64,000 nucleotides of DNA from Naegleria gruberi (taxonomy: Eukaryota). Position numbers and translations under genes: made by a program. A model generated the notes under the pieces. That model saw only the letters and a program-made list of their open reading frames with translations, searched no databases and was not told the origin of the DNA. The stretch lies in NCBI GenBank assembly GCA_000004985.1, contig GG738928.1, one strand, 5' to 3'. This document shows positions 4,387-55,368 of the stretch, one piece after another. Position 1 is the stretch's first letter; the number at the start of each line of letters is the position of its first letter.

Positions 4387-7245
4387 TCAATCTTCATTAA
4401 TTCCAAATTGAAAGTCTTTTGAGGAACTATCTTTTGGTAGTGTGTCGAANNNNNNNNNNNNNNNNNNNNNNNNNNNNNNNNNNNNNNNNNNNNNNNNNNT
4501 TGAATATCTGAATAGGTTTGATAAAAATGTAGTATCACATGGACAACCACTGAGATTCAACTCATCCAGTGTCTGGAAGTACATGTACATAATATTAGAA
4601 AAAATTTTAGGAAATTCAATATTTGAAAGATCCAATGTTTTCAAACATGCAAATTCCTGTAAAAATGTTCTAAACGAATCACTGTAAATTGGATTGATAT
4701 CTGTACTCATATCACCTGTTATATTGTTCAATTTGACATTCTCAATGGAAGGGGAATAACTCAATGAATGAGCAATTGAAAAAAGAGCAGGTGGTGACTT
4801 GTTTCCAGTGAATTTGAATGTCTTCAGATTCTTCTTAGCTAGTAAGCTATCTCCAATTCTTTGTGTCCCTCTTTCTCCAATATCACAATGAGAAAGATCT
4901 AAATAGGTTAGATTAGGGCAGTTTTTCAATTTTTTCAAAAAATCGGCAAGATATGAGACACCGTTATCCCCAATCTTGTTGTTGCTAAAGTCTAATATTT
5001 TCAATGATGGAAAGTTAATATAGAATGAAGAGAGATCTGATCCTGTAATCTTTGAATCATGAAATATCAAGCTCTCTATTAATGCTCTTCTAGAATAATC
5101 ACTCTTAATAGAATAAAAGAATGTCTCAAAGTCTGCTCCTTTATCCTTTTCCTGATACTCGATATTCCAATGTTTGAGAATTATTGTACTAATTGGAAGG
5201 GATGATAATATTTTCGTCAAAACATCTTGGCAACCATTGAACCAACAAGTCTCCAAACATTTGCATTTAGAATATCTGCTAATCATTCCAGAAAGGAGAA
5301 TGAAATTATTTCTTTCAGCCATTTCACGAAGAGTTCTGCTCATCGACTTTTGTAAATATAATTGCATCCATGCGTCTTTCATCTCCTTTAAATAGTAAGG
5401 AAGTTTTGAAATTCTCCATTTTGAATTGCAAGCAATTTTCCATTCTTGTTCTGATGTAAGTTTTGGCAAATCTTCTAGAACTATGTGTTTTCTAAAATTT
5501 GTTGGAGGTTTTCCATGGTAGCCTTTTTGTAAACTACTCTGAATGCAGGATTTGAGTAGTTCAATAACACTATCATGAGTTTCAAATACATGGAGAGATG
5601 ACATTTCATTCAGTAACTTGAAGAAGGTTTTAAAGTCATTCATCTTTTCAATTTGGTTCAATTTTTCTATGAACGAATCTATGGATTGATAAGGCAATAT
5701 TCCACAATTTTCATTCATAAATTTAGAAATACTTTCAATAGAGTTAAAATCGGAAAAGATCTGGATAAAGTAAATGTGTAATGTGAGTTCTTTCAACCTC
5801 TTTCTGATACTTTTGAAAGAATAGGACACTCTGTCGTCATCAGTTACTTCAGCACATTGAAAATCTGCAATTTCCTTGTAGCTCTTCAAAATATTCTTAA
5901 CATATCTTGTCAAGAATTCTCTAACATAGATATCATACAAATCTTTCCAATCAAATTTTGAAAATGGAATTAGCATTACAAAGTTTAACAAATCTCCAAC
6001 TTTTTCTTTTGATCTTTCTTCACTTCTAATAAAGGAATCAATAGAGCTATTAATCAATTCACTAATCTCTGGAATTTCCTTAATCGCCTCGATCATCAAT
6101 CTGAAAAATCTCAAGCAAGCCATAAATGCATTGGTGGTCTTTTCTCTCTGATCAACCATTTGAAGCAAACAATTAGACATCAATCGAGGAAGAATTTCAA
6201 TAACTTGTTCTGGTGAAAAATCTATCTTTTTCGAATGGGAACTGGACAAATTAGCTAATGAAGATTTGGTAACGTGAAGAACCTTCTTGATATGAATTTC
6301 ATCATTTGTTTCTGTAAGGATTGGTATCCAGTGTGTAAATGAAGTTTTCTCTCTTGACATTCCTCTCACATTATAATTCATGAACGCTCTCAATGAAAGA
6401 ATATCCAGAGAGCAATATATAGAACATATTTCCAATGATTTTGCGTTTCTCTTTTTACAGTTAATTCCATAGCCAACAAGATCACTTGTTTTGGTAAAGA
6501 AGCAAACTGAATCTGAGTTGGCTAACACTTTCTCAACTTTACAATTCATTCTTTTGAAACCATCATCTTCCTCTCTAGATACAAATGGAGGAGAAGGTAA
6601 ATGATTAGAATGGCCAACTTTTCTATTAACATATGCTTTGGCATGTGACATTGACCATTCCTGAGCTGACAAGTATTCTTCCTTTTTTTCCTCAAAAGTC
6701 TTTGGATCCTGAATATTTGACAATACTCTAGTCACATCTGCTCCATCATATAAAAACGTTTGCAACTGCATCAAGATTGAATGAACAGAATAAATTGGTT
6801 TCCACTCCTCAAGAAAATCCAAACAAATCCTATCAGAATCGACCACATTAGGATGTTCCATCCTCGTACACAATCGAATAGTGGGCGCCTCCATTGGATA
6901 ATTCTCACTAAACTTGATCACTGCATGAAAAACCACACCATCATACATGGTATCTGAATTTCCTCGAATATTTACGTGCCACATCATGAAATCCCTCTCA
7001 TCATCCACCTGAAAATTCATCTCCCGATAAATATTCATTATTTTCAAATTATCGAGAGCCTTCTTCTTCTTGATCGGAGCTGGACATGCACTCACATGAC
7101 TCAGTGGATTTTCTTGAATGTATTTAAATTCGGAATATAATCTTTTCAAGGCTAAAATTGGAGAAGTTTTACAATGTTTGTAACTATTCGGATCTGAATT
7201 TGCTTTCGAACGTGCATTGGGCTTGATCTTTTGGTGTTGAGACAT
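4387..7245 (-). CDS. Ubiquitin-conjugating enzyme (UBC/E2) domain fused to a long C-terminal region ending in RNI-type leucine-rich repeats. The 3' end is interrupted by a 50-N scaffold gap (4450..4499).
   Basis: The N-terminus has the UBC fold motifs (...GNSDTMYDGVVFHAVIKF..YPMEAPTIRL.TRMEHPNVVDSDRICLDFLEEWKP.YSV.SIL..LQ) with the catalytic Cys retained. The C-terminus has repeated L..LDLS.N.IGD.G...L-type LRRs. ATG at 7245. Confidence 0.6.
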   Translation of the reverse strand: MSQHQKIKPNARSKANSDPNSYKHCKTSPILALKRLYSEFKYIQENPLSHVSACPAPIKKKKALDNLKIMNIYREMNFQVDDERDFMMWHVNIRGNSDTMYDGVVFHAVIKFSENYPMEAPTIRLCTRMEHPNVVDSDRICLDFLEEWKPIYSVHSILMQLQTFLYDGADVTRVLSNIQDPKTFEEKKEEYLSAQEWSMSHAKAYVNRKVGHSNHLPSPPFVSREEDDGFKRMNCKVEKVLANSDSVCFFTKTSDLVGYGINCKKRNAKSLEICSIYCSLDILSLRAFMNYNVRGMSREKTSFTHWIPILTETNDEIHIKKVLHVTKSSLANLSSSHSKKIDFSPEQVIEILPRLMSNCLLQMVDQREKTTNAFMACLRFFRLMIEAIKEIPEISELINSSIDSFIRSEERSKEKVGDLLNFVMLIPFSKFDWKDLYDIYVREFLTRYVKNILKSYKEIADFQCAEVTDDDRVSYSFKSIRKRLKELTLHIYFIQIFSDFNSIESISKFMNENCGILPYQSIDSFIEKLNQIEKMNDFKTFFKLLNEMSSLHVFETHDSVIELLKSCIQSSLQKGYHGKPPTNFRKHIVLEDLPKLTSEQEWKIACNSKWRISKLPYYLKEMKDAWMQLYLQKSMSRTLREMAERNNFILLSGMISRYSKCKCLETCWFNGCQDVLTKILSSLPISTIILKHWNIEYQEKDKGADFETFFYSIKSDYSRRALIESLIFHDSKITGSDLSSFYINFPSLKILDFSNNKIGDNGVSYLADFLKKLKNCPNLTYLDLSHCDIGERGTQRIGDSLLAKKNLKTFKFTGNKSPPALFSIAHSLSYSPSIENVKLNNITGDMSTDINPIYSDSFRTFLQEFACLKTLDLSNIEFPKIFSNIMYMYFQTLDELNLSGCPCDTTFLSNLFRYSXXXXXXXXXXXXXXXXXFDTLPKDSSSKDFQFGINED
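4450..4499. other. Assembly gap (50 N)
   Basis: Run of N. Confidence 1.
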
Positions 7246-8766: not shown

Positions 8767-11700
8767 TTAAATCAATTTCGAATCATTCAACAAATTTTCT
8801 CTGGTTTTACCAGAATTTTCATAAAAAACAAACTCATCTGTTGTAGTAAATCTGGAAAAGGTATCATTCAAGTTGATAATAATCTGATCTTGTAGTGAGC
8901 TGATTGATTGTTGCAATTTTTCATGGAATGCTTCTGGTATTTCCTTTTCATTCTTTGATTTCATTTCTTGATTGTTCTTGGCAGAGTTGACCAATTCACT
9001 AAGTGATTTTCTCATTTGTTTGAATTCGTTTCTAGTTTCGGATGGAATGTTAACTTCCTTAATGGAGCCACTTTCAATATAATTGGTAAATAATTCTTCA
9101 ATCAATGAATTCACAGAGTCAATTCTGTCATTTGCTTTGATTAACTCTTGGAGTTGTTTCAGTTCCAAATATAAATGCAAGTTTTCTAATGAATATTCCT
9201 TTTTACAGAATGATTCGAATAGTTTCAGACCTTCTCTATTCGATAGTAATTGTTCCAATTCATCCTTTTCTTCATTACTCGATTGGTTTCTAAAATTCTT
9301 TTGTTTGATGAAATGAACTAATCTCACAATAAGTGCAAATCCTCCAAATACCAACAAGTAACTAAACAAGTACAATATTTCAAATAGCAATGAAATTGAA
9401 TCGTTCACTCTTGAATTTACATCACCTCTCTTGTAACTCAAACCTGACAATCCAATAATTTGTGAAATTACCAAAAATGTAAAGCAAACAATAAATAAAA
9501 TCATTTCCACTCTAAAGTATAATGGAGTATCGAGTTGAATGAACCAATCATAAGCTCTCTTGATTGGAACTTTTGCCATTTTCTTGGCAGTTTCCTTATC
9601 AAACTTTTGTAAAGCTTCCTTGTTAAACGAAAGTGAACTATTTGATAAATTACTTGTTGATTTTTCATTACTATCCACAAGCATTTCAGATTCATTTCTA
9701 GAATTCAAAAGTGACATGATCACATCTAACAAAATCAATGCACATATAAGAAATCCCAATGATAAAATCATAATTGTAAACGAAATTGAAACAATGTAAG
9801 AATATTCGATTCCTGTAATGACACTCGTTCTCACAAGAATTACCCACAACGTCCAATACATTAGGTTCACGGTCATAAAGATTCCCATGATGGAAATCAT
9901 TGCTCTTGTGGAGAGGAAAATTCTAATCACTCTCAAAATTTTGTCTCCCTTTTGGTACAATTGACTAGTTCTATCATTTTGGTTCAATGAGAATTTAATG
10001 GATAATCTATGATAGAAATATTTGAGAATGTGAAATCTTGATGTCTGATACAAGTATGAAAACATTGCTGTCAAAGTCAAAGTGTTTACAATAATTGTAA
10101 TAACATTCGAAACAATATTCGATGCCAAATTACCATTTTCCAATTGAATCACCGTCGACTCTGTCAATCCCTCACTCTTCAATGATAATATCAACCCATT
10201 TCTAGTAGTATCCAACAAAATACTCCTCTGAACTATCAGAAATAGTCCACTTTCCACCACCAATGCAAACATTCCAATAAACGGAGTTACAAATCGACTC
10301 GCCAATGGTTGAGATTTTCGCATCACAATCAAGGCAACGAGAATTGAACTCGACAAGATGAAAAATAAAACACCAAATGAAATTTGTGCAATGTACAATT
10401 CGGATAATTGTTCGGCAGCCCTTAATGAATCAGTTGCGGTGTTATTAAGGGAGTTTTCGATAAAGGCAGCGAAGAGTGTGGTGTGCGTACATTTACAAAT
10501 TAAATCTCCGTTTGATTGTAAAGTGGAAAGCGAGCAGCCGCTGGAATCCCATTGTAAAGTTGTTTCATTCCAGAATTTACAAGTGATTTGAGATGAATTG
10601 AGAGAATTGATTGTTTGATTCAATATTGTAAAGTTAATTGAAATTGGTTGAGTCAATTCTGAAAGTGGTAATGTTTTACCTCCTAAATAAAGAGTGAAAT
10701 CTTTAGAGTTGGTCAATTGAGTTTGATTTGAAGTAAATAGAGGATTAGTATAGGTTATGAGTGATAATCCAACTTCCTTATTGTAGCCATCGTATTTTGT
10801 TAGAATGTAATCCGAATCTAAACTAATGTCGGAGAATTTTTCTAATTTAGTGCTGTTAGAATTCTTAATAAATGTTGAAACTGTTACATTAATCAAATCT
10901 GATGAATAAACTGTGGAAATAATAGATTCGGATAATAATTTGACCGATTGCTGCAATAATAGAACAGATGTCAATTGAGTACAAGTATTCGAAACATTTG
11001 AGAAACCAAAAGAAAGTAAATTACTTGCACTTGTCAAGGTTGTTTGTAAATCAGAATCTGAAATTCTTTGCTTTGTAACGTAGCCAAGAGTTTCCTTTTC
11101 TTTTTTGTAAATTTCATTAACTTGATTCAAATAATTTCCTAATTTGTCATTAATTGCTGTAGCAACCTCATTGGAAGAAGCTGATAAAGTAATTTGTTTC
11201 AGATTTTCCAAAGCAGTGGACGGATTGGAAATGTCAATTGTCATCTTATTGACAGACTCTACAAGTACTGAACTAGTTACTTCCTTTCTCAATTTTAAAC
11301 TTGTATCATATGGAAATACAGTTGCAATACTACCCATTCTTGCTTTCAAAACTTCTGAAGAATCGTCCAAATTTGCACTAATCGAAACTGAACTAATCGA
11401 TTGAGAATATTCAGTCCCCAACGCATCCAAACAAATTACAAACAATTCCAAACTTTGACTTGTAGCCAAACTTGTTTCATTCAAATAGGGAAGATACACA
11501 GAATCTCTTCCACTTGTCAAAAATTCTGAAATTCTAATCATTGAATTCTTAAATTTAAATCCAAAAGCAAATTTGAGAGGAGAAAGAAACAATCGACTCG
11601 CATTCGAATCTGTAAAATTCCAAGCACCTACAACTTCCTCAATAATAAAACTTGTTTTCAGTGCAACACCTGACAATGGTTGAATATTAACAATTGCCAT

Positions 11701-13604
11701 TGGATTTCGAATTGGTGGTGCGACGAGAATTACTTGTTGTGAAATGGCGATGATTTGATCCTTAATTGGCTTAATAAGGAGTGTGAAGGTGAGATTTCCA
11801 GAGGATTGGATGGTTGGTTGGATTTTGATGGAAATGATGGGATTGAAGGTCAATGTGAATAAGTTGGCGTTGTTTTTTGGTTTCGTCAAGATTCCAATAA
11901 CATTTTCATCTGCTGAAATAACTTCAGAACCAAACATGAATGAATATTTCAATGAAATGGTACAATTTGCAGTAGCACACTCATCCCTTGTTAATTTCAA
12001 ATCTGAACTAGTTCTCAATTCAACGCTCACAATATTGAAATCAACATTGTTTTTCACACCATTCACAAGTACTTGTGGAATTCCAATAGCATTCAGTGAT
12101 CTTTCCACTAAAAGTGAACAATCTATACCTAAATATCCTCCAGTACAAGTACAAAAGTCAGGTTGTAGACAATTGCCATTTCCAGAACAAACATTCGGTG
12201 AATTAGCCGAAACTCCAAAACAAATTGGAATGAAACAATTAGGTCCAGTATATCCAGGTGAACAAGTACAATTATTTGAAGAAGCACAAATACCATTTCC
12301 TGAACAAACTCTATTATCATTTGCAGCAATTCCAAAACAACCAATCGAGCCACAATTATTTCCATAAAAACCTGGTTGACATTGACACTTGTTCATTTCA
12401 ATGCATTCACCCCTTCCTGAGCAAACACTGCTACTGTTAGTACTCTCAATTCCAAAACACCAATTTGTAACACACATTGTTTTGAACTCATTCAAATAAT
12501 AACCACTTTCACATGATGGAGTTAGTGATCTAATTCTCTTTTTCAAAAATTCTGAAATATAAATTACACCACTTGTCTCATTAAATACTAAACCTCTTGC
12601 ATCACTCACTGAACTATCCAGAGCATCAGTGTTTTCATATGAAGTTGTGCTATTTCCAGCAATCATTGTAAGAGTTCCATTCTTGTCAATTCTGAAAATT
12701 CTTCCCTTATATGTTTCTGTTACAAAGACAGTTTCGTCCTTGGTAACGAATAAAGCACCACCTCCAATTGGGGAACCAGTGAATGCTAGTGTTGAAATAT
12801 ATCCAGTTTCGTTTATCACTCTAACACCTTTCGTATCTGATAGGAAAATCTTTCCATTCCTAACAAAAATATCAAAAGGAGACTGAAGAATAGCACTAGT
12901 AGCTAGAACACCCTCTCCAGAATACGAAGAATCCAAATCACTTCCTGCTATTAATGAAATTATTCCATTCTTGACTAATCTAACTCTCGACTTGTCTATC
13001 AGGTAAAATTCATTCTCTGAAATTGCAAAGATTGAATTTGGACCTTTCAGAGCACTAAAAGCAGATCCATTTTCAGTGAAGGAAGACAAGGAGAAATCAG
13101 AATAGTTTCCAGCAACTGTGGAGACGAAACTATTCGGCCAATCACGAAGAGAAAGTTTTCTGACAATTCTATGTATTCTAATGATTAAAGATAATGATGA
13201 AATTGTTATATTGTGATATTGTGTGAAAATGTCATGTTATTAGCTTACCTGTCAACGTAAAAGAGGGTGTCATTGAAAATACTCGAGTCAGCCACAGTTG
13301 ACATACAAATAGTGTTCTGATTACCATCAGGAGTGTATATTGAAGTGTTGTTTCCAATCTTGTTAGGAGAAAAACTTTCACTTTCCAATGAAAAGATTCG
13401 AATAGTACGGTTTAAACCATCAGAAACGATTAGTTCGTTGTTGTATAAGGAAATTCCATACATTCCAATATCTGGTGTAGAAATTGGACCAATAGTCTTG
13501 ATAATGTATTTAACACTAGCTTGTTTTTGTTCTTGTCCATCAACAGCCACAAACAGTAACAACACAATTGACAACAACAACCATGTATGACAGTTGACTT
13601 TCAT
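8767..13604 (-). CDS. Giant adhesion-GPCR-like receptor. Domain order: signal peptide, NHL-like repeats, 3-4 EGF-like Cys repeats, long extracellular region, GAIN/GPS motif, 7TM, cytoplasmic tail, C-terminal RGS domain. Two exons (13249..13604; 8767..13177), intron about 71 nt with an alternative acceptor at 13160.
   Basis: ATG at 13604 with signal peptide MKVNCHTWLLLSIVLLLFVAV. The donor GTAAGC follows ...LFYVDR and the acceptor is in phase. EGF-like CSGNGICASSNNCTCSPGYTGPNC repeats are present. The GPS motif is CKFWNETTLQWDSSGCSLSTLQSNGDLICKCTHTTLFAAF. It is followed by 7 hydrophobic helices. The RGS-like block is FESFCKKEYSLENLHLYLELKQLQELI. Confidence 0.7.
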
Positions 13605-14452: not shown

Positions 14453-14525
14453 TGCCGACACCAGGGATCGAACCAGGGACCTTAAGATCTTCAGTCTTAC
14501 GCTCTCCCAACTGAGCTATGTCGGC
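14453..14525 (-). tRNA. tRNA-Phe (GAA)
   Basis: The reverse complement GCCGACATAGCTCAGTTGGGAGAGCGTAAGACTGAAGATCTTAAGGTCCCTGGTTCGATCCCTGGTGTCGGC folds as a canonical cloverleaf. The acceptor stem is perfect, the anticodon loop is CTGAAGA, and the T-loop is TTCGATC. Confidence 0.9.
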
Positions 14526-16255: not shown

Positions 16256-19200
16256 ATGGCAAATCCAGCCAAATTAAAAAAAATGCGAACTTTATTATCT
16301 TTCGTAATCTTGCTCTATTTATTCACTATTGTGGTCACAGGTGAGGTGAAATCCATTCAGCAACAACAGCAACGAGAATCCTCATTCACTTTCTTCCTGG
16401 ATTCTTATCAAGGAACGGAAACAAATGTTTCATGTCTTGATGAATCCATTCCATGTGTTTACATGTCTCAAGTTATAGACTCGGCACGATCAATATTACA
16501 GCTGGGAAACAATTCCTCAACATTATCTTTAGAGATGAATATTCTAGTAAGAGGAGAAGTAATTGACTGCGATATTCTAATTGACTTTACTAATTTTACA
16601 TCAAATTTTAAATTGAATATTGTTGGGTGGGATGATGACGACTATTTCCTATCATCATGTTATCCTTTTCTACATGTAAATAGTAAAATAGATGAGTTGA
16701 CCATTGTAAAGGGGTATTCAATTCGAATAATAATTGTATTTAATTATGAAATGAAGAATTTATCCATTTCTAAATGTAAAGGAAGTCTTACTATTCAAAC
16801 TTCAATTGAAAATGCAAACATCTTGGAAAGCGAATTTAATTCATTAGAAATTACAAGTCAGATTCAAAATCTTGTTATACTAAACGATTCGATTACTTAC
16901 TTACAAGGAAATTTGAAAGCTAAACAAGTGAAAATGGAAACTATTAATATTTCCAATTTTAAATTAGTGGAAATTAAGAATTGTCATTGGAGTTCATTCT
17001 CAGGGACAAGTTTATTTCATGGCGGAGAGAAATTCTCAATTCTTTCAAGTATTATTACAGGCCCAATGATGTTTGAAGTTGTGAGTGTTTTGGAAATAAT
17101 CAACGTCACTGTTAGCAGGGTTAATTTTGAGCCAGAGAATGGAAATTTTTTTGGAATAGCCACAGTTGACCAAGTGACAATTGAAAGATGTAATTTTGTG
17201 GATAATACTATTGGTGGAAGTATGATTTCAGTACAACGTTGTAAAAATTTACTTATTGTTAATTGTAAACATTCCAATAATTTATCCAAGTTTATTACAA
17301 TCCTGTCATCTAGTAGGAATCGAATTACAATTCAAGATTCTGAATTTTTCAATAATCAGGCAAGTGATGCCTTAATTGTTTTTGATTCCAATTATGTTGT
17401 AGATAGCACTATATTACTATTAGATAATTGTAATTTTGTGAATAATATTGGAGGATTGACTGGATCCGCTCTGAAAATAACTAAAGCTAATGTTCTCATT
17501 TCGAGTTGTAACTTTTCATTTAATAAGGCAGGTTATGGAGGAGCTGTCTATATGATAAGTCAACTTTCTACTGTTATCGAATATTCAAATTTCACTAACA
17601 ATGAAGCAACTCAATCAGGCGGTGCAATTTATGTGGGAGATGTTTCAAATCTACGACAATGGGAAACAGTAGAAACAATTTGTGATTCTAATAACGCATT
17701 GGAAGCTGGAGGATGTTTATATATGAAAGGTAAATCAAAGATTGATGTGGTGTATAATTTTGCTGGAATCAATAAGGCAATTTGTTATGGTAACAATATT
17801 GCTACAGAACTCACAAAAAAGAAGTTTGAATTTAGACTCAATGGATTCGAATATCAATTGATTACCAATCAGAGTATTCAAATTTATCCAGGAGAATCCC
17901 TGGATTTGAGAATTATATTATCAGATAGATACAATCAGAAAAGTGTAATGCTTCCTGAAAATCAAATGTCTATGAAAATCAATTCTAATAATTTAGTTTT
18001 ACAAACACAAGGTTTTACAAGCGGAAATGATAGCATACTTTCGAATAATATTCAAATACTTCTTAAAGAATATCAATATGCCAACTTCCATGAAGAAACA
18101 ACTTTTTCATTCATATTGAAAGATATCGAACATTCGATTAGAATGAAATTGGTTGATTGTCCACCAGGATATACCATTTCTAAAAATTATGGAAATGTCA
18201 AATGTGAATACATTCCAATAGAAATCATTCTTCCAGCTGCTATTGTTGGTGCTATTTCCTTAATTATTATATTTGTGACTGTAATTTTGGTGGGAATTTA
18301 TATTGTTAAAAAACTCAAAAAATTGAGAAGACAAGAAAGAGCAGAAAAGGAAATTCAAAAGAAATTTATTGATAATTCTTTTGTTTTCAATAATGGCAGC
18401 AATGGTTCAGATTTGAGTGTTCCACTGGTTGAAAAATCTTTCAACTCTGAGGATTCTATTCGATACACTATTCCAATTGCAGAAATTGATATATTATCTA
18501 AAATTGGAGAAGGATCTAACGGATTAGTATATAAAGCAAAGTGGAACAGGACAGATGTTGCCATAAAACAATTGAAAACTTTAGGAGAAGAGGATGATGA
18601 AGAGTTTGAAAGAGAAGCTCTTTTAATGAGCTCATTAAGACATCCGTCAGTTGTTAGTTGCTACGGAGTTTCAATAACCAACGACAGCAAGTATATGGTT
18701 GTAAGTACTTACTTTTGAGAAATAATTTGAATTTATTGTATATTAGGTGGAATACTTGGAAAATGGAAGTCTTGAGAAGGCACTCTACAAGTCTAAAATT
18801 GGAAAAGAAAAATTGTCATTCGAAACTAAATTGAATATTCTCTTGGATGTTGGAAAGGGTATGACCTATCTCCATTCGATAAGACCTAACAAGATTATTC
18901 ATAGGTAAGTTTAGTTTCTATTTACTTTGGAGAGTTAACAATTTTCAGAGATTTGAAACCGGGAAATATTTTGCTTACCAAAAATTTAAATGCCAAAGTG
19001 AGTGACTTTGGGCTCAGTAAGATGGTTTCGAATAATACAGCCACAATGACCACAAATGTTGGAACCTTATTATACATTGTAAGTTTTTCACAATATTCCA
19101 TTTAACTAATTTAGCAATTTCCATCTTTAGGCACCAGTAAGTTTTAACAACAAATTAATCATTGATTTATTATTTAATATTTTAGGAATTATTATCTAAT

Positions 19201-19578
19201 TATCACAAAGGACAAACAACAAAATTGGATGTTTATTCATTTGGACTAATCATGTGGGAAGTTCTATTTGAAATGGTTCCATTTTCCAATGAACTATCTG
19301 ATGCAACAACACCATTCTCTATTTTATTACAAGTAACCAATGGATTAAGACCTTCTCTTTCTGTTATGGGAGAACATTTCGAATATATTCAAGAATGGAT
19401 TGAAGATCACTTTACAATGAGAGAAATTCAAAAAATTGGAAAGCAAACCATTGAAAAATGTTTAAAAGATTATATTGAAGTGATGAAACTCTGTTGGTAT
19501 AAGGAACCAAGCAATAGACCAGAATTTATTGAAATTACAGAAAGTTTAGAATTAATTATTGAACAAATAAGGAAATGA
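16256..19578 (+). CDS. Receptor-type protein kinase (TKL-like). Extracellular region with Pmp-type / parallel beta-helix repeats (FxxN...GGAIY), single TM, cytoplasmic kinase. Five exons: 16256..18700, 18747..18904, 18949..19078, 19131..19136 (6-nt microexon), 19186..19578.
   Basis: Kinase motifs: GEGSNGLVYKAKW, VAIKQLK, HRDLKPGNILL, DFG, APE. The introns all have GTAAGT donors and T-rich ...AG acceptors in phase. TM segment is ILPAAIVGAISLIIIFVTVILVGIYIV. The GGAVYM / GGAIYV repeats are typical of beta-helix Pmp-like repeats. Confidence 0.75.
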
Positions 19579-24333: not shown

Positions 24334-25761
24334 TTAATAGCCAACATAGGATGGAGTGTGAACGGTGAATTTGGCATTATGGAAATCTCTCTTCAATAAG
24401 CTATCGCTACTGATGGAGTAAATAAAGTGAGTAAGGAATTGAGTAGTGGGATAGATTGCATTGGTTGAGAAGAGAATAATATCATCCTTTTCAGATTTGA
24501 AATTATTGGTGTAGTTTCCATAATATTGTCCAAGGAAATGAGAGTCAAATGATGGAGAGAATGCTTCTAATTCATAGTAGGTGTAATCATCATACCTCTC
24601 CCTGCTGGAATTGATGAATATTCTAGTGTCTGCTGAGATACCTAATTTCAGTGAGTGGTTATGGAGTTTGACAACCTGAGATTCACTACCATCCAGTTGA
24701 GCAAGCGGAACAGTTGAGTTATCTTTGTAATCTTGATATACAACATATCCATCAATAGCATCAATTTTTGCTTCATTTAACTCAACTCGAATGTTTTCCA
24801 TTTTGACAAAAAAGTATAAAAACCCAGATTTTGGAATTTGATAATTAATCAATGAACCAAGTTCAGAGCAGTCAAGTTGACCAACAAATACATATCCTTT
24901 TCTCCAAATAGCTGATTTGTTTGTCGTATTTGGAGAACCTCCAATCTTTGTTTTAGAGCCATCATTTGGCTTATTGGAATCAAAATAATCTGGATACAAA
25001 TTGTAGGATAAGGAAACAGCATTATTTAAAATCTCCTCAGAACTATTATCTACAGATTCTGATTTCATAAAACTTGAAATAATTGATTTCTTTGAGTTTA
25101 AATGAGGAAATAAATCAGAAAAGAATTTAGTTTTCCATCCTTTTGATTCATCGTTTCTAATTTGTGAAAGTGTAGAACTGGTTGCATAGGTGAAGAATAA
25201 TGGATCTTCAATCATTGTTAAATGATAACAGTATTTCCAAATTTCATCATTTTCAACAATTAAACAATTCCAATATTTGCAGACAATTCTCATCCTCAAT
25301 AGTTCATTAAAATTTCCAATAAATTTCAAAATATTTGAGTGAACATCTGGTACCAGAGCTGATAGACTAGCTCCCTCTCTAATAGAGACTTGGGATGAGT
25401 CAGTATGTTGATTGAACCAATTGTTCACAAGTACCAATGTAATGTTCGAAAAATAACTCGAAACCCCTGGAAGTGAGTTGTTCAACTCTTGATCATTCTT
25501 AATTGCACACTCAATTGCATATTGTCCAATTGAGGAACAGTGAAAAGTAAGTGTGTAATTCAAAGAAAGCTCAAGAATTTCTCCCAACACAAACTTGATA
25601 ATTCTCTTCAAACAAACAGCAAGCACCTTCTCTTGGTTTTCAATTTGATGCTTTAAACTTCCAAAATTGAGTGTAAAATACTTTCCAATAAATCTTTCAA
25701 CACTCAAACTCTCTGCAGCATCATCCACCATCACATGTTCAATCTGAAGTAAATTCTTCAT
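24334..25761 (-). CDS. F-box domain protein (start placed at first ATG, MKNLL...). An upstream ORF (to 26114) overlaps in another frame.
   Basis: F-box-like motif SALVPDVHSNILKFIGNFNELLRMRIVCKYWNCLI. The track's start is TTG. The upstream 118-aa ORF is offset by one base and has no intron signal to join it. Confidence 0.45.
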   Translation of the reverse strand: MKNLLQIEHVMVDDAAESLSVERFIGKYFTLNFGSLKHQIENQEKVLAVCLKRIIKFVLGEILELSLNYTLTFHCSSIGQYAIECAIKNDQELNNSLPGVSSYFSNITLVLVNNWFNQHTDSSQVSIREGASLSALVPDVHSNILKFIGNFNELLRMRIVCKYWNCLIVENDEIWKYCYHLTMIEDPLFFTYATSSTLSQIRNDESKGWKTKFFSDLFPHLNSKKSIISSFMKSESVDNSSEEILNNAVSLSYNLYPDYFDSNKPNDGSKTKIGGSPNTTNKSAIWRKGYVFVGQLDCSELGSLINYQIPKSGFLYFFVKMENIRVELNEAKIDAIDGYVVYQDYKDNSTVPLAQLDGSESQVVKLHNHSLKLGISADTRIFINSSRERYDDYTYYELEAFSPSFDSHFLGQYYGNYTNNFKSEKDDIILFSTNAIYPTTQFLTHFIYSISSDSLLKRDFHNAKFTVHTPSYVGY

Positions 25762-26583
25762 TGGAAAGGCAGCCAATTGTCCTTCCAAATTCTTATACTG
25801 GTTTCCGAATGCTCTTTACTATCCATCGAATTTTCATCCACAAAACCTTTCAACAATTCCTTGATTGGACCATCAACAGCACTCTTATATTCTTCTTTCA
25901 TCAAGATATAGGGTTTCAAATCATCAATTAATTTCCAGAATAAAACCAAACCAATAGAAGCCAAACTTTTATAACCACAACTAGCAATAAAAATCTTCTT
26001 TTCCAATTTTGACGCCTTTTCCTCCAATTGGTCGGCATTGAAATCGATTGGAACAGTGAGAGGGAACCCATATCTATCTAGACGGTGGGCAGTACCCTGT
26101 ATTCGTTGTTCCAACCAAATTTTTTTAGAGTCGAGCCAATTTTATAAATATTTTAATATTATTTATTCTTCGGATGATATTTCGTCGCCACTTTATTCAT
26201 CACTTCCACTTTGTGGATTCTGATGCATCATCTTCCTCATATTCTGATCTGCTGGTAGTATCGTCTTGGTAAATTCTTGGAAAGCTTTTGGAGTTTATGG
26301 TTGATGGTTGGTATTTCATCATCAACAGGATTTCCTCTTTTTGTTGCCAATTTCTTGGTTTCTTTGTTGTTGGAGATTTAGATGTAAGAAGAAGATTCCA
26401 GTCAAAGAAACTTCCTGATGATGGGTTGTTGTATTAATTTTCTAGCCAACTGCCATGTTGTTCAGTTGCTTCCAAATACCAGCTTGTGATTGGACATTGT
26501 GGCCAGTAGACAAAATCTCTTAATTTTTTTAAATTTTAATTTAACGGTTTTTATCAACCAAATGTCAAAGCAACGGATCTTCT

Positions 26584-29149: not shown

Positions 29150-31427
29150 ATGCCTTTAAATGCATCGAATGTATCCAACAGAAGTAAGGATGATGTGATC
29201 ATCGAGGATGGGTATACAGCATCTTCATCGTTATCGTCATCCTCATTATCGTTATTAAGGGCAGGTGATAGTAAAAGCTGCAGTAGCTGTTCAATAGAAG
29301 CAGCAACTCCATGGAAACAAGATACATCCTCATCATCAACATCAGATGACTTCATAATTCCTATTCGGAATGGTAGGAGCAACTCTCGCCAATTCATAAA
29401 AACACCATCCTTTTCATCCCTTTCAACAATAATAGATTCTTCACTTCCATCAACGCCTAAATCATTGCCTTCATCACCATCATCATTACAAAATCATCAA
29501 GAAGGAACAGAACCACCTCTTACTGATACTCTCCTAGTTAAATCGATGAGCGAATGTAAGAATGACATGGAGAGGGGCATGTTGAACATGTTGGCTGATA
29601 AGAAGAATCTTCAGAGATTGGTCGGAATTCTCTTCATCTTTGCCACTCTACAAAGTGTTCAACAAATGACACTCTATGAAAATTTATTGAATATTGCCTT
29701 TTTCCTTGTTCAGTGCCTTAATAATTATTTAAGACAAACTAATAATGATACAGCTCTCACCTATGAGGAATCATTCAAACATTTGGATAAAAGAGAAATT
29801 ATAAGAACTGTTTTTTCAATGGTCATGTACACTTTGAGAATGATGTATCTTCCCAAACACAAGATGATTTTCCTTCCAGTGCTTTTTATTTGGTTTGCAG
29901 GAGCTAACAAACTATATATCTACTCTACATTTTGGGGATTACTACCCACTTACTATGCTTCAGTGATGTATATATCGTTGGCTTGCTATTTTGGATTTTA
30001 TGAATTGTTAGAGAATGGGTACACTGAGACATTTCTAAATTTAATGATGGATTACTTTATTTTGGTGGCTGTGGTGTGGATGTGGACATATTATCTGGTT
30101 AATGTAACTGGATTCTTGAAACACAAAGTGGACAAACTGAAGGAAACAAGGAAACGTTTGGAAAGTGCTTTGGAAGCACGAAGTAGATTCATTGCACATG
30201 TGAGTCATGAATTCCGTTGTCCAATCATGTCCAGCATTGGGTGTTTAGAATTGTTGAAAGAAACTCCTCTGAATGAGAAACAAAATGATCTCGTAGATAC
30301 AATAGTTTCATCGAATAGTGTCATTCTTCTATTGATTGAAGACATTTTACAAATTGTTAAAATTGAACATGAAAGTAAGGGTGCAAAGAAGGAAGATACA
30401 AATATTCAACCTTTCAATATTTTCGAATCATTGAAATCGCTGAAAGGAATAATTTCTGGTTATGCTTCGAATTTTAAGGTTAAGCTTAATTTGGAAATTG
30501 ATGAAGGAATTAAGAACTTGACAGTTTTATCAAATCCTTCAAAGATCCATCAAATACTTTCTAATTTGCTGACGAATGCAGTGAAAGCATCAAAGAAAGA
30601 TGATGATGTTTGGCTTAAATGCAATATTTTGGAAAAGAAAGATGATGAAACTGTAAAGATTAGATTTACTTGTCAAGATTTTGGATGTGGAATTCCTCCT
30701 AATTTGTTGGAATCTATATTTGAACCCTTTGTACAATTGCAAAATAATTCACAATCAAAAGTACCTAGCTCTGGGCTAGGATTGACTACAGTATCTCATT
30801 TAATCAAGACATTGAATGGAACTATTAACGTTGAATCACAGGTTGGAATAGGAAGCTCATTTACAGTTGACTTGGCTTTTAAAATTGTTCCAAACGAGGT
30901 AAAATATAAAGTTCAAGAAAATGTTGTTGTAGAAGAAAAGAGATCGAAACTACACTTGAACGTTCACAAGAATTACTTGAACCTGATGTCACATTTAGAA
31001 GAAGGTGAAAAGGAAATGGAAGAAACTCCAAAATTCAATTCCAATGTTTTGATAGCTGAAGATAATCCAATCAATAGAAAAGTTATTGTAAAGATGATTA
31101 ATAGTATGGGAAGTGAAACTGATTTTGTTTGTGATGGAAAGGAATTGGTTGAAAAGTTTAATCCAAGCACTCACAAAGTTGTATTTACTGATATGGTAGG
31201 TAGCTCAAATTTCGTTTTTTAAGGTCTAATAACAATAATAGAATATGCCAAATATGAACGGATTAGAAGCAGCCAAGAAATTAAGAGAAAAATTTGGAAA
31301 TACTTTCAGGATTTATCTCTTGACAGGAAATGTCACAATTTCATTATCTGATGAAATTGGTGTGTTTGATGGAGTGTTAACTAAACCTTGTTCTAAACAG
31401 GATTTGAAAAAATGTTTGGAAAATTAG
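29150..31427 (+). CDS. Hybrid sensor histidine kinase. Domain order: Ser-rich N-terminus, polytopic membrane region, HisKA, HATPase_c, receiver. Two exons (29150..31195, 31242..31427); the 46-nt intron splits the receiver domain.
   Basis: H-box HVSHEFRCPIMSSIGCLELL. N/G boxes (LSNLLTNAVKAS; DFGCGIPP; GLGLTTVSHLIKTLNGT). Receiver motifs IAEDNPINRKV... and VVFTDM|NMPNMNGLEAAKKLRE span the GTAGGT...ATAG intron. Confidence 0.8.
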
Positions 31428-42130: not shown

Positions 42131-42253
42131 AAAACTAGTAATAAATTTAATATCAAATTATATGAGTTTTAATTCCTTAAATCGTTGGAGCGGGATTGAA
42201 AGCCATTGAAATAGAAACACGAAAACTTCAGCTTGGAAACTAAAAATAAAAAA

Positions 42254-43567
42254 ATGTACAACAATAATAATAATTCATCCTTCTACTCTTCGGGTACAGG
42301 ATTTGTACCACCAACTCAGGGTTATTCCTATCAACAACCTCCTCCTATCAATACACAACCTCCTATCAATAATATGAATTCATCTTTTTCCAATCTTCCA
42401 AAAACATCCTATTATTCAGGTACAACAACAACAACAACAGCAGATCAAGCACAAAGAATTAGACAATTACAAGCTGATTCTATAATTAAAAGATTTCATA
42501 ATGCTAAAATTGTTTCTACATTAGATAATAATGTACTTGATGTTCCTATTACATTAAAGAATGGACAACAAATTACTTTCCGTGTTTTAATGCAACAAGC
42601 CTTCCCACAACAACCACCTCTAATTACTACTCTCTGTACAATTAAACATGCAAATGTTGATTTAAGTGGTTACGTTGTTCATCCACAATTAAGACAATGG
42701 ACTCAACAATCAAGTCTTGGAGATGTTTTGACAATAGTTTTTAGAGATTTTATCAACACTCCTCCAAACTATATTTCTGATGAATTACCAAAGAATCATA
42801 TCACAAAAACAACAGCAAATATTGGTATGATTACTCCTCCAATCGGATCTACTCCTCCTCCTGGTTTAAATCAAACATCTCCATTGATGTTTAATCAACC
42901 TCCAATTAATCAACCTCCAATGACAAGTTCAACTTATCCTCCAAATAATACAATTCCATCCATGACAAATCCAATGACTAATTCAATGACAAGTACTGTC
43001 CCAACAAATACTCAACCAACTTTCCAAGATTCCTCTTGTATGATTCCTTTACCAAATATTCCAACAAACTTTTCTGAAATTTCTTTACTTGAAGGAGTTG
43101 ATGCCGTTCAAAAATTACTTGATAGTGAAGAATTATTCAAGCAGTTTATTGAAAACTTATCATTTACAAGAGAAGCAAAGAATATTTATCAAGATTTGAG
43201 AAATGCCAATATGGATATTGCCAAGAGAAGTGTAGAAAAAGATGAACAAATCAATAACACTCTCAAAGAACAAATTACTCAAAAAAAGGCAGAAGTTGAC
43301 AGACTTTTGGATCAAGTTCAATTTTTACAAAATAAGCAACAACAACTTTCTCAAAGATATGCACCAACTCAATTATTAATTATGTTAAATGAAAAGATTG
43401 ATGAAGTTGACAATGAAAGTGAACAAGTAGGAGATTTGTTCCTTGATAGTCCAACAGCTGAACCACATCAAGTGAAAGAATTTATTGACAAGTATTTGGA
43501 AAAGAGAACACTTTATTACTTGAGAAGACAAAAACGTGATCGTTTCAAGGATACCTATATTAAATAA
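42254..43567 (+). CDS. ESCRT-I subunit Vps37-like (Mod(r) domain) with an N-terminal UEV-like domain and Q/N/P-rich linker
   Basis: The C-terminus has coiled coils and ...EFIDKYLEKRTLYYLRRQKRDRF, matching the Vps37 Mod(r) end motif (FLE.FLEKR...HLRR...EKL). The N-terminal beta-rich domain (ITFRVLMQQAFPQQPPLITTLCTIKH) resembles the UEV fold. ATG at 42254; the track start is TTG. Confidence 0.55.
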   Translation: MYNNNNNSSFYSSGTGFVPPTQGYSYQQPPPINTQPPINNMNSSFSNLPKTSYYSGTTTTTTADQAQRIRQLQADSIIKRFHNAKIVSTLDNNVLDVPITLKNGQQITFRVLMQQAFPQQPPLITTLCTIKHANVDLSGYVVHPQLRQWTQQSSLGDVLTIVFRDFINTPPNYISDELPKNHITKTTANIGMITPPIGSTPPPGLNQTSPLMFNQPPINQPPMTSSTYPPNNTIPSMTNPMTNSMTSTVPTNTQPTFQDSSCMIPLPNIPTNFSEISLLEGVDAVQKLLDSEELFKQFIENLSFTREAKNIYQDLRNANMDIAKRSVEKDEQINNTLKEQITQKKAEVDRLLDQVQFLQNKQQQLSQRYAPTQLLIMLNEKIDEVDNESEQVGDLFLDSPTAEPHQVKEFIDKYLEKRTLYYLRRQKRDRFKDTYIK

Positions 43568-50101: not shown

Positions 50102-53100
50102 ATGTTCAAAGGTACACCTTCAACAAAGGAACAACAACAACAATTGGAAGAATCAGCTGCCAACAAACGTAAACGGTCATCCTTTGATGATGATTCCGAT
50201 TCTGATTCATCATCTTCGGATGAAGAAACTTTTGCATCATCATCATTAGCCTTTAATAATCATAATAATTTAATGAATGATGAACAAGTTAATGAACAAT
50301 CAAAAGCCTCCTCTTCATCAATTATTGATAATGATCAGAAAGAAGATGAAGAGAATACAATGAAATTATCGGAATTTAAAAAGACACTTCTCTCTAAATT
50401 ATCTAAACAATATACAACAATTATTACACAGAATGAATTGGATATTCTTGAACAACAACTTCTTTCTAATCCATTTGCATTTTCATCATCAGAATGGGAT
50501 GAATTAATTGGTCAATATCAATATAGATCCTACATTGGACAATTTAATCATCAAATTGATAAAAGAAATACTGATTTACCATCACAATATTCAGTTTTAT
50601 TAAATAATCAATATATTAATGTGAATGCATTGGAAAAAACAAGACATTTGAGATGGAAACGATCAGAATTTTTGAAATTAGGAGAAGAATCATGGTTAGA
50701 TTGGATTAGAGAGGAGGAATTACATTTTATGGAAGGAAAATACTCAGATCATCAACAACGAGATGTTATTAAATGTATATATGAAAGAGCACTTTTATGG
50801 GAAAATTATTCTTGTAAGTTGTTATATAGTAATTAATTGTTTGATATTTATTCCATTGTTGATTATTCATGTTCTATTAAATAGACAAGACATTAAGAGC
50901 TAATTATTGTAAATTCATGTTAAAATATTATGAAAGTAATAGTAGTATTATTGATGATAGTTTCAATCTGGTATTTAATTTAGTGGGATATGATGAGGAA
51001 ATTTGTAATTTATATTTGAAATATTTAAAGCAATATGAAAAAAATCATTCCAAAATTAGAAATATCTATGCAAACTTGTTAAAACATCCAAATCATCAAT
51101 CTGTTTTCACAATTTGGAAGGAATATAATCAATGGGAAAAGAATCCATCAGATGATGAAATGAAAGCCAGATATATTCACGCACTCAAACAAGTTGAAGA
51201 GAGAATTTCACTTCAAAAACAAACACAAGATGAATCTTCATATTTGGAACAAATTAATTTTGAAATGAAAAAGTACAATAATTGTAAAGAATTACTAAAA
51301 TCAAAGGAATTTAATGAAATGTCTTTGGAGGATTTGAATGAAATTGGTTCTATTTTAAAGGAGAGAATTACATTACTTTTAAAGAAAGTAGCAAGTGAGA
51401 GTAATAATTCTGAAACTCTATGGAATATGCTATTGAACTTTTTAATAAGTGAAAAGGATGAATTTATTTCAACTAATAATGAAACATTGTCCTCTTCAAA
51501 TGGAATATTCAATACTATTAAGACTTTACATGAAATAATCAAGACAAATTTCAAGTACTTGGATAATAGTCATCTTTCAATTTACTTGCAAAATATTGAA
51601 CAAGTGGATGATAATTTATTGAACGCTCTTCATCTTCACATGACTTGTTGGGTTGCCTTTAAGAATCTTTCATGGAATTCTGAAATGCACAAGTACTTGA
51701 TACTAAGTTTGGAGATTTTACATGAATTATCTTCCAGCAAGTTGGAATATTCTTCAAGTTATTTGAAACTTATCAATGATATCATGTTTAACAAATCAAT
51801 GCATGCTCTCAATTCATTTGCCAATGATTTGACATTTAATGATTACTATCAAGTATTCTCAACCTTCTGTTCATGTCTTACTAGACTCAATAGAAAGCTA
51901 TACTTCAATATCAGTACCAGATCGGAACCAAATGAAAATTTAAATTCTGCACTGGTAGAAGTATCACAAGCAGCTGATCAATCATTCCAAACATTCTCCG
52001 ATTACTTGGATCAATACTTTAAAATGGACACATCTCGTGTGCATTATTTTGAACTTCAATATGCTGAATTTTTATTGGAGAATGGACAATCTCAGAGAGC
52101 TTTAGAATTCTTTGAAAATGTTCTAATGAATAATGAAATATTCAAGAAGGAACTTAGAGCATGGCAAGATTTTATTCAATTCATGGAGAAAATTAATTGG
52201 TTTGAAATTAATAATGAAAATCCACTCGAAACTAAACATGAGAAGATATCAGCTACCTACGATCTTGGAATTCGTTCAATGGATAATCCAAGCACTAAAC
52301 AAATTCTTGCCAAATTGTGGTTGTACTATGAAAAGGTCAATTCCAATTCTGTACATTCCATTATTAAGGCTGAAAATATTTTGAAACAATTTAAAGATTC
52401 ACAAAAGAAAAAGATGAAGGAAAAATCCAACACTAAGGAAAAGTCAAATATTAAGGAAAAATCCATCATCAAGGAAAAATCAAATGATGATAAGGGAAAG
52501 ACTGAAAAGAAACCAAAGGAAGAAAAGAAAACAAAGGTAAAAGAAGATAGACCAAAGAAGAAGGTTAAATTCGCTACTACTGAAGAAGAATTAGTGGAAC
52601 AAGTACCAAGTGAAAATACCAACATTATCAGCAGTGAAATCTCAAATGTTGAACAACAATTGGATCATGATGTTGAAATGAAAGAATTGGAAAATATCAA
52701 ATCATCAACAGAAAAAACAATGGAAACAAAATCAACAAGTAATGAAACAAATCAACCACAAACAGAACCACCAAAGAAAATCAAGAAGGAATCATCTGAT
52801 GAAAAGCCTTGTTTAAATGTTGTTGTTTGGAATTTACCATTCAGTATGAAAGAACAAGATATACGTGAGCTATTCCAACAACATTCAATTCAAGCAAAGA
52901 GAATAACTCTCATCACTCGTGAGAATGGATCCTCTAAGGGAATGGCATTTGTTGAATTGGAAAGTCATGAAATTATTCAACAAGCCATTGAAAAACTTAA
53001 TAATTATGGAATTGATAAAGAAGGAAATTTACTTAAAGTAGCTCAAGCAGAAACAGCCAAAATGAAAAAATTATTGAAAAAGCAAAAAGATATTACTAAT

Positions 53101-53373
53101 AAGAAGTTTGTACACAATTCAACTCCTAAATTACATATTAAGGAATCAGATACAAGACAAAAGAAGCCAAACATGTTTAAACCAAGATCAGTTCCAAAGA
53201 GAAATGAAACAATTTCATCATCATCATCATCAAGTGGTAATAATAATCAACAAACAGCAAGTGGCAGTGGCAGTGATTCAGTAGTTACTAATAACACTGA
53301 AAATCAATCACAACCATCAGCTGCTGCAGTGGGTGGTTTGAGTAATGATGATTTTAAAAAGTTTTTAAGATAA
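50102..53373 (+). CDS. HAT/TPR-like repeat protein with a C-terminal RRM (SART3/Prp24-like?) and a Lys/Glu-rich linker. Two exons (50102..50813, 50885..53373), 71-nt intron.
   Basis: The donor GTAAGT follows ...LWENYS and the acceptor AATAG is in phase, linking the 244-aa and 818-aa ORFs. The RRM reads LNVVVWNLPFSMKEQDIRELF...KGMAFVELESHE. Confidence 0.5.
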
Positions 53374-53596: not shown

Positions 53597-54919
53597 ATGG
53601 ACAAACGACAAAGACAAGATTTTGAAAATCCTCAATTAATTAATTCGGAAGAGAAAGCAAAAAAGGTTGCAAAAGTCCAACAAGATGTATTTTCAGATGA
53701 TATTTGTTTTGAAATAATTTCAATGCTTGATGATTCGTGGTTTATTTTAAATACTTGTTCATTAATTTCAAAACAATTCTTTAAGGTGATCAAGGAACGT
53801 TCAAAACTTGCTATTCAATTTCAAAAGAAATTTACAGAGAAACGAGTTAAATTATTCATGAAAAGTCAATTTATGAATAGTATTGTTAAAGTTAAATTTT
53901 CTAGTCGGTTGCTTCAAGCCATAGAAACCCCCAAATTGATAAGTGCAATGAAACAATTAACATCACTTAATATTTATGACAATGGAATTGGTGATGAAGA
54001 AATCAAATACATCAGTGAAATGAAACAATTAACATCACTTAATATTGGTTACAATAGAGTTGGGGATGAAGGAGCCAAATATTTAAGTGAAATGAAACAA
54101 TTAACATCGCTTAATATTGGTTACAATAGAGTTGGTATAGAAGGAGCCAAATATTTAAGTGAAATGGAACAATTAACATCACTTAATATTGGTTACAGTA
54201 GAATTGGTATAGAAGGAGTCAAATACATCAGTGAAATGAAACAATTAACGTCACTTAATATTTCTAAAAATGAAGTTAGCAATGAAGGAGCCAAATATTT
54301 AAGTGAAATGAAACAATTGAGATTACTTAATATTTATCACAATGAAATTGGTGATGAAGGAGTCAAATATTTAAGTGAAATGAAACAATTAACATCACTT
54401 CATATTGGTTACAATAGAATTGGTCTAGAAGGAGTCAAATTGATAAGTGAAATGGAACAATTGACATCACTTGATATTTCTGAAAATGAAATTAGTGATG
54501 AAGGAGCAAAATATTTAAGTGAAATGGAACAATTAACATCACTTAATATTGATTACAGTAGAATTGGTCTAGAAGGGGTCAAATACATCAGTGAAATGAA
54601 GCAATTAACATCACTTACTATTGCTTACAATAGAATTGGTATAAAAGGAGCTAAATTGATAAGTGAAATGAAACAATTGAGATTACTTGATATTTCTAAC
54701 AATGAAATTAGTGATGAAGGAGCCAAATATCTAAGTGAAATGAAACAATTGATATCACTTTATATTTCTGAAATTGGAATTGGTATAAAAGGAGTCAAAT
54801 ACATCAGTGAAATGAAACAATTGAGATTACTTGATATTACTCGCAATAGAATTGGAAAAGAAGGAGCTAAATTGTTAAGTGAAATGAAACAATTGACACC
54901 ACTCTGTTTGGAATTGTAA
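53597..54919 (+). CDS. F-box-like / RNI-type LRR protein with about 16 near-identical 24-aa leucine-rich repeats
   Basis: N-terminal DICFEIISMLDDSWFILNTCSLISKQFFKVIKE, then repeated MKQLTSLNIGYNRIGDEGAKYLSE units, which are 72-bp tandem units at the DNA level. Confidence 0.6.
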   Translation: MDKRQRQDFENPQLINSEEKAKKVAKVQQDVFSDDICFEIISMLDDSWFILNTCSLISKQFFKVIKERSKLAIQFQKKFTEKRVKLFMKSQFMNSIVKVKFSSRLLQAIETPKLISAMKQLTSLNIYDNGIGDEEIKYISEMKQLTSLNIGYNRVGDEGAKYLSEMKQLTSLNIGYNRVGIEGAKYLSEMEQLTSLNIGYSRIGIEGVKYISEMKQLTSLNISKNEVSNEGAKYLSEMKQLRLLNIYHNEIGDEGVKYLSEMKQLTSLHIGYNRIGLEGVKLISEMEQLTSLDISENEISDEGAKYLSEMEQLTSLNIDYSRIGLEGVKYISEMKQLTSLTIAYNRIGIKGAKLISEMKQLRLLDISNNEISDEGAKYLSEMKQLISLYISEIGIGIKGVKYISEMKQLRLLDITRNRIGKEGAKLLSEMKQLTPLCLEL

Positions 54920-55318: not shown

Positions 55319-55368
55319 NNNNNNNNNNNNNNNNNNNNNNNNNNNNNNNNNNNNNNNNNNNNNNNNNN
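55319..55368. other. Assembly gap (50 N)
   Basis: Run of N; isolated N at 45609 and 55391. Confidence 1.

Follow-up and report, generated by a model that had tools for sequence, protein, structure and literature searches.

A RAD6-like ubiquitin-conjugating domain fused to a module of predicted UBR4-like fold and to leucine-rich repeats: a candidate single-chain ubiquitin ligase in Naegleria gruberi

A gene on the minus strand of a 64,000-nucleotide stretch of the Naegleria gruberi genome (contig GG738928.1 of assembly GCA_000004985.1; the whole stretch is referred to below as the window) encodes three domains within one gap-free open reading frame (ORF): a ubiquitin-conjugating enzyme (UBC, or E2) domain resembling RAD6, a conserved middle domain whose predicted structure has the fold of the hemiRING-UZI ubiquitin ligase (E3) module of UBR4, and a series of leucine-rich repeats (LRRs) of the ribonuclease inhibitor (RNI) type. 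On balance we lean, by a modest measure, towards the view that the product is a single-chain E2-E3 hybrid ubiquitin ligase. The initial annotation, made from the DNA alone, had described an E2 carrying its own RNI-type LRR in one ORF; that fusion is real, and the Pfam searches it had suggested place both UQ_con and LRR_6 above their cut-offs, but the approximately 350 residues between them, a conserved module of UBR4-like predicted fold, had been left unexplained. With a middle domain of this predicted fold, the reading of the protein shifts from an E2 plus an adaptor to an E2 plus an E3 module plus a receptor.

The ORF as listed (4387..7245, minus strand) comprises 952 amino acids (aa), 17 of them X read across a run of exactly 50 undetermined bases (N) at 4450-4499. 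Because 50 is not divisible by three, the reading frame past this assembly gap is arbitrary, and the trustworthy product is the 915 aa encoded by 7245..4501 on the minus strand, with no stop and no N; the ORF of 950 aa first reported agrees with the listed length, but its remainder is an artefact of reading through N. The UBC domain, the middle domain and nine LRR strands all precede the gap on the coding strand. A gene boundary concealed by the gap, which had been raised as a point to check, can thus be ruled out: the gap cuts off the C-terminus and does not part UBC from LRR, and a hidden stop or frameshift separating the LRR part, the proposed grounds for refuting the fusion, has no place at the UBC-LRR junction, the gap being downstream of the LRR. 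On the 3' side of the gap, stops occur in all three frames within 6-53 codons, the stop of the convergent neighbouring gene, at 4057, is only 392 bases away, and the C-terminal tails of relatives find no match in the sequence there. The apparent coding segment at 4387-4449 is probably 3' untranslated or intergenic DNA, outside the protein.

The N-terminal domain is recognized by Pfam as UQ_con at aa 78-191 (expectation value, E, of 4e-25; 88 bits versus a cut-off of 27). Its top matches among Protein Data Bank (PDB) entries are all RAD6, UBC2 or UBE2A/B, at 60-73 bits versus about 57 for UBE2D, and the UBC domains of two relatives described below, from Acrasis and a diatom, likewise match RAD6/UBE2A/UBE2B best. 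The domain had been called a canonical E2. Its HPN motif and active-site Cys are indeed present, with the surrounding consensus, and the HPN...C combination is read in 44 of the 64 family proteins in which a regular expression recognized the active-site motif; less canonical is that strand 1 is followed by a lineage-specific insert of about 25 aa, which occurs in no aligned relative, nor in UBE2D2 or RAD6, and whose modelled helix (aa 60-75) has a predicted local distance difference test score (pLDDT) of 64-72. The insert, together with the preceding strand VSACPA, is encoded by an in-frame stretch of 87 nt (7092..7006, minus strand) that looks like an intron, beginning GTGAGT and ending TTTTCAG|G. 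An unspliced intron was nevertheless rejected, since its excision would remove the conserved strand (ISASPI or VSALPL in relatives); introns of this genome are typically 44-52 nt long, AT-rich and filled with stops, and start with GTAAGT. The 87-nt stretch (7006-7092) is probably a true coding insert, and may be subject to alternative splicing.

The reading as a ligase turns on the middle domain. Its AlphaFold2 model, built from a 34-sequence alignment, has a pLDDT of 89.5 and a predicted template modelling score (pTM) of 0.88, and begins with a small N-terminal subdomain, in which a long beta hairpin leads through a short helix and a strand into a long helix; some eleven helices come after it. 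When this model was submitted to Foldseek, the structures 8b5w and 8btl_A ranked at the top (TM-score 0.57-0.60, probability 1.00), with the next matches near a TM-score of 0.15. The comparison sets predicted models against two crystal entries of a single protein, UBR4, and the modelled domain reproduces the overall organization of the hemiRING-UZI module, in which a cross-brace-derived subdomain sits on an 11-helix UZI bundle. As far as such models can be trusted, then, the domain has the fold of the UBR4 E3 module. The UBR4 module binds and activates UBE2A and UBE2B, the orthologues of RAD6, specifically (PMC10873205). The RAD6-like character of the UBC domain is a second line of evidence, independent of the fold: the family to which the window protein belongs fuses this type of E2 to a look-alike of an E3 module, two components known to serve together as separate proteins elsewhere.

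The conservation of this arrangement was established through the middle domain. A word-indexed protein search returned two relatives from the whole protein, two from a three-sequence profile and none from a 34-sequence profile; the word index therefore evidently misses the mid-domain family. Two members found on transcript-sized contigs, P0001 and P0002, each share two regions with the window protein in BLASTP alignments, the UBC domain and some 340 aa corresponding to window aa 240-580. A profile of this second region, searched exhaustively against 1.84 billion representative proteins, matched 1863 clusters at E<=1e-3 and 432 at E<=1e-30. Among the best 152 matches, 83 have a UBC domain upstream of the middle domain and seven also match the LRR part of the window protein, so that an architecture first regarded as unusual is in fact recurrent (UBC, middle domain and LRR in at least seven clusters at 50% identity). 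Exact look-up identified four such relatives as Willaertia magna KAL9641706.1 and Acrasis kona KAL0483244.1, both from genomes, and Anaeramoeba ignava KAJ5071803.1 and Percolomonas MMETSP0759, both complete transcripts. Residues 31-899 of the window protein align with aa 23-888 of the Percolomonas protein (P0153) at 31% identity (E 2e-122), and P0035, P0068 and P0081 align similarly. These colinear alignments indicate that the order UBC-middle domain-LRR is conserved across Heterolobosea and Anaeramoeba, and that in relatives it resides on one mRNA. The closest relatives are heterolobosean, at only about 30% identity. No synteny with the Willaertia locus was apparent. Separately, the deposited Willaertia magna protein (JBEGDK010000166.1, 10001-14066) lacks a post-Cys segment present in all relatives, and its gene span exceeds the coding sequence by about 100 nt, which suggests a mis-placed intron within the UBC domain of that gene model.

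Beyond this group, the family extends to forams, Arcellinida, Pellita, the diatom Seminavis and the fungus Geosiphon, under generic public names such as "hypothetical protein", "ubiquitin conjugating enzyme E2" and "leucine rich repeat family protein". Pfam analysis of a sample of 44 members detected UQ_con in 38, RRM and F-box in 11 each (the latter just upstream of the middle domain), LRR_6 in nine, SPRY in seven, S1 in four and VWA in three, with TerD, CCCH and ankyrin in smaller numbers; WD40 repeats occur in P0002. The variable partners at the C-terminus (LRR, WD40, SPRY, RRM, S1, ankyrin) resemble the variation of substrate receptors, a point in favour of the hybrid reading.

Directly after the UBC domain, 63 of 157 family proteins carry the motif C-x2-C-x-H-x4-6-P-x-P, of which H212 and P219 (window numbering) are nearly invariant among 44 members. 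The cysteines are gone in the window protein and other heterolobosean members (NRKVGHSNHLPSPP), in which the segment is still confidently modelled. In members retaining its Cys, the motif could supply metal ligands, or could form a zinc knuckle that completes a hemiRING-like site. In F-box-bearing members, SPRY and F-box sit between this motif and the middle domain; the place they occupy in P0001 corresponds to a linker of about 35 aa in the window protein. Pfam found no F-box or F-box-like match in the window protein at E<=1, including aa 195-245, and identity as an F-box/LRR adaptor (FBXL) was ruled out, an F-box not being detectable.

The LRR part passes Pfam thresholds as LRR_6 (E 3e-10; 39.9 bits versus a cut-off of 23.4), as well as LRR_4 and LRR_1, at about aa 723-795, and has ribonuclease inhibitor as its best PDB match (E 3e-13). 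Strand and helix alternate in its repeats, which measure about 28 residues and are RNI-like, and the full-length model contains nine LRR strands between aa 663 and 897. The extent of about 300 aa first ascribed to the region shrinks to about 255 aa before the gap. Relatives of about 1320 aa carry some 430 further residues, consisting of more LRRs and an RRM (RRM_1 by Pfam in four of seven, with the motif YAFVEF visible in all seven). A missing C-terminus was sought elsewhere in the window, with only generic LRR or RRM similarity to unrelated ORFs, and a scan of metagenomes for close relatives spanning the gap found none; the gap may conceal the second LRR block and RRM, or the gene may genuinely lack them. 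One of the ORFs compared (53597-54919, plus strand) encodes 440 aa made up almost entirely of RNI-type LRRs (LRR_6 E 2e-53) and adjoins two further gaps (55319-55368 and 55391); its resemblance to the second LRR block of the UBC-middle domain-LRR relatives is weak, and it lies just downstream of an 818-aa RRM protein (50917-53373). No sign was seen that these two ORFs represent the missing C-terminus of the UBC-LRR gene.

Table 1. Features of the UBC-LRR gene and of the sequence around the assembly gap; residues are those of the 915-aa product.
Feature	Residues	Coordinates	Strand	Remarks
Reliable part of ORF, 915 codons, ATG at 7245 to gap edge		4501..7245	-	Colinear (aa 31-899) with 1320-aa relatives
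Basic N-terminal extension, predicted disordered	1-25	7171..7245	-	pLDDT <50; relatives have comparable basic extensions
UBC/E2 domain, RAD6/UBE2A-like	26-204	6634..7170	-	
Insert of ~25 aa between strand 1 and strand 2 of UBC fold	58-82	7000..7074	-	Modelled as helix
HPN motif	131-133	6847..6855	-	Read from sequence; aligns with HPN of UBE2D2 and RAD6
Predicted catalytic Cys141 codon (RICLDFL), TGT	141	6823..6825	-	Aligns with active-site Cys of UBE2D2 and RAD6
Conserved post-UBC motif (YVNRKVGHSNHLPSPPF)	205-221	6583..6633	-	Degenerate C-x2-C-x-H-x4-6-P-x-P; pLDDT 93-94
HemiRING-like subdomain	244-335	6241..6516	-	Invariant Cys248, beta hairpin 257-284, His305, invariant Pro308, helix 316-334
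UZI-like helical bundle	336-580	5506..6240	-	Conserved KGYH at its end
Helical linker or N-terminal LRR cap	581-659	5269..5505	-	Helices 599-657 in model; conserved in UBC-middle domain-LRR relatives, phmmer match from aa 602
RNI-type leucine-rich repeats, at least nine, ended by gap	660-915	4501..5268	-	
50-N assembly gap, true 3' gene end hidden		4450..4499	.	Relatives extend ~430 aa further
Apparent final 20 codons and stop, read through gap		4387..4449	-	Arbitrary frame; no similarity to C-terminal parts of relatives

The features collected in Table 1 are consistent with the following mechanism. Ubiquitin would be loaded onto Cys141 by a ubiquitin-activating enzyme (E1); the fused hemiRING-UZI-like module would engage the loaded UBC domain, in cis or in trans within an oligomer, and favour discharge; the LRR, joined in relatives by the RRM, would hold a protein or ribonucleoprotein target; and ubiquitin would be handed straight to that target with no separate E3 needed. 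The analysis shows the three domains, the order in which they stand and how they are conserved, the match in fold and the kept HPN and Cys; an E3-like activity of the middle domain, either mode of engagement and the role of the LRR as substrate receptor are inferred. A single-chain hybrid is made plausible by the hybrids UBE2O and BIRC6, by engineered chimeras of E2 binders, which can degrade targets (PMC11415077), and by the high intrinsic lysine reactivity of UBE2A/B (PMC10873205). Fusion constructs of an E2 with a RING are also held in the PDB (8v0d, 8uq9).

Several observations weigh against a hybrid ligase of this kind. At the level of sequence no homology to UBR4 could be detected: Pfam yielded no model matching the middle domain of the window protein or of any of 34 diverse members, even at E<=10, and a profile of the domain (A4) searched against PDB sequences returned nothing at E<=10. 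The full-length model has a pTM of only 0.64. The zinc site of UBR4 is of the C2HC type, formed by Cys4838-x2-Cys4841 and His4887-x2-Cys4890 (PMC10873205); its counterparts here, assigned by order and spacing without superposition, are Cys248-x2-Thr251 and His305-x2-Pro308, so that only two of the four ligands seem to be kept, with Thr251 and Pro308 occupying, by sequence position only, the places of Cys4841 and Cys4890. Cys248 and Pro308 are invariant family-wide, and in none of the aligned members does Cys occupy the other two positions. The zinc knuckle for E2 binding may accordingly be missing here, or have been remodelled. On the E2 side, of the helix-1 residues of UBE2A only R8 is kept (R35), R7 and R11 being replaced by K34 and S38, and the loop-2 position (R95/S97 of UBE2A) reads E-W-K-P; the set of residues specifying UBR4 binding is thus not kept in full, and the domain is for this reason classed as RAD6-like only, not as a RAD6 orthologue. 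Finally, the active site is altered in two relatives of the UBC-middle domain-LRR type, P0081 (the Anaeramoeba ignava protein) and P0113 (MMETSP0168), in which the catalytic Cys has given way to Ser and the HPN Asn is likewise replaced (HPC...IS-I and HPF...VS-M). It follows that not every member of this subfamily needs catalysis; part of it may be catalytically dead or serine-using.

Some of these observations fit a different arrangement, in which the protein is an E2 that is tethered but continues to depend on a separate E3, the middle domain being a non-activating scaffold or docking platform by which it is delivered to RING or cullin ligases. The F-boxes found upstream of the middle domain in a quarter of the sampled members (11 of 44) imply docking to Skp1 and the Skp1-cullin-F-box (SCF) ligases, the zinc site forming the E2-binding face of the hemiRING seems half lost, and the module of UBR4 is itself only a weak activator (PMC10873205). 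However, F-boxes are missing from the window protein and its seven closest relatives, no other two domains are found together with anything like the regularity of UBC and the middle domain, and the sole fold relative of the middle domain is an E3 module that binds exactly the RAD6 type of E2; we therefore consider this arrangement unlikely. Less probable still, and in our judgement improbable, is a mainly non-catalytic role, in which UBC would be a ubiquitin- or E3-binding module akin to the ubiquitin E2 variant (UEV) domains, and LRR and RRM would function in a ribonucleoprotein or axoneme-type complex. It draws on the serine-bearing relatives just described and on the similarity of the LRR, greatest to structural LRR proteins of the axonemal nexin-dynein regulatory complex (N-DRC) and to RanGAP1, but the window protein retains HPN, Cys141 and the surrounding consensus, as do most recognized motifs of the family their HPN...C. 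That two or three neighbouring genes have been read as one, or chimerically joined at the gap, is barely conceivable even though the ORF is touched by the gap and the proteins of the window are absent from the protein collection, which hence offers no independent gene model: 915 codons run without stop or N in a genome whose typical introns are short and stop-filled, the gap lies 3' of all three domains, and an assembly artefact is effectively excluded because colinear homologues exist in four relatives, some of them complete transcripts.

The remainder of the window is gene-dense and eukaryotic in character, with a G+C content of about 31% overall that reaches 0.39-0.42 at 36-42 kb and drops to 0.17 at 62-64 kb. 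A second UBC-fold protein (42233-43567, plus strand) matches UQ_con weakly and carries Mod_r after it, as does the ESCRT-I component Vps23/TSG101 with its UEV domain, and an ORF at 24334-25788 (minus strand) combines DUF1963 with a weak F-box-like match of 23.2 bits, below the cut-off of 24.3. A 1440-aa ORF (8767-13089, minus strand) with NHL/teneurin-like EGF repeats, a GPS motif, a multi-pass membrane region and a C-terminal RGS domain resembles an adhesion receptor of the G protein-coupled class. Helpful for calibrating gene models in this genome is a kinase gene (16256-19300, plus strand) split by at least four introns of 44-52 nt with GTAAGT...TAG/CAG boundaries. A hybrid histidine kinase (29150-31222, plus strand; HisKA, HATPase_c and the start of a receiver domain) and a single tRNA-Phe(GAA) (14453-14525, minus strand) were also found.

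The first description of a hemiRING-UZI module, that of UBR4, dates from 2024, and the module is reportedly unrecognizable from sequence. The family considered here would provide evolutionary evidence of its own that a RAD6-type E2 and the UBR4 module belong together. Its members, at 600-1300 aa versus the 574 kDa of UBR4, could serve as small, soluble single-chain models, much simpler to work with, for E2 activation and for whether a zinc site is needed, and could be nature's counterparts of the E2-binder chimeras now designed to degrade chosen proteins. Should it turn out to be inactive, the middle domain is still a well-defined, unannotated domain that merits a profile model of its own. Our literature search found no description of UBC fused to a hemiRING- or UZI-like domain, or of UBC-LRR-RRM proteins, with an earlier mention in the E2 survey of Burroughs et al. 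2008 being possible.

Among known systems, the closest counterpart is the pair formed by UBR4 and UBE2A/UBE2B (PDB 8B5W, 8BTL; PMC10873205). UBR4 recruits a free E2, whereas E2 and module form one polypeptide here; the UBR box and giant scaffold of UBR4 are both missing from the window protein, in which target recognition would fall to the LRR (with RRM in relatives) and not to an N-degron receptor; and similarity to the middle domain lies in the predicted fold, two of the four zinc ligands being replaced by position (Thr251, Pro308) and sequence similarity being undetectable. A far weaker match is the RING and cap-helical domain of yeast Ubr1 with Ubc2/Rad6 (PDB 7MEY); Ubr1 differs from the window protein in having a complete RING as well as separate elements for binding the E2, and in working with an E2 that is a protein apart. 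With the FBXL receptors of SCF the window protein shares an LRR solenoid, the presumed recognition module in both, and family paralogues bear F-boxes, while the window protein has none. In combining UBC with substrate-binding regions in a large multidomain chain, and in the proposed ubiquitination without a separate E3, it resembles UBE2O and BIRC6, which a 2025 paper (PMC12818219) calls the only two E2/E3 hybrid E2s, such hybrids being regarded as very rare. It differs from both in that its UBC is RAD6-like and N-terminal, and in having no BIR or CR1/CR2/coiled-coil regions. To our knowledge, UBE2O and BIRC6 have no recognizable RING-related E3 module, whereas the window protein has one by predicted fold. 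A broader and more doubtful proposal, which we put forward only tentatively, is that the family represents an ancient, widespread and hitherto undescribed class of single polypeptides joining a RAD6-type E2 to a zinc-poor hemiRING-UZI-like activator and interchangeable receptors (LRR-RRM, WD40, SPRY, F-box, S1). In a more radical form of this proposal, the invariant Cys248, deprived of its zinc partners, could act as a relay cysteine to which ubiquitin passes from Cys141. Such a class would add a third kind to the E2/E3 hybrids now represented by UBE2O and BIRC6, and would be evolutionary kin of the UBR4-UBE2A pair.

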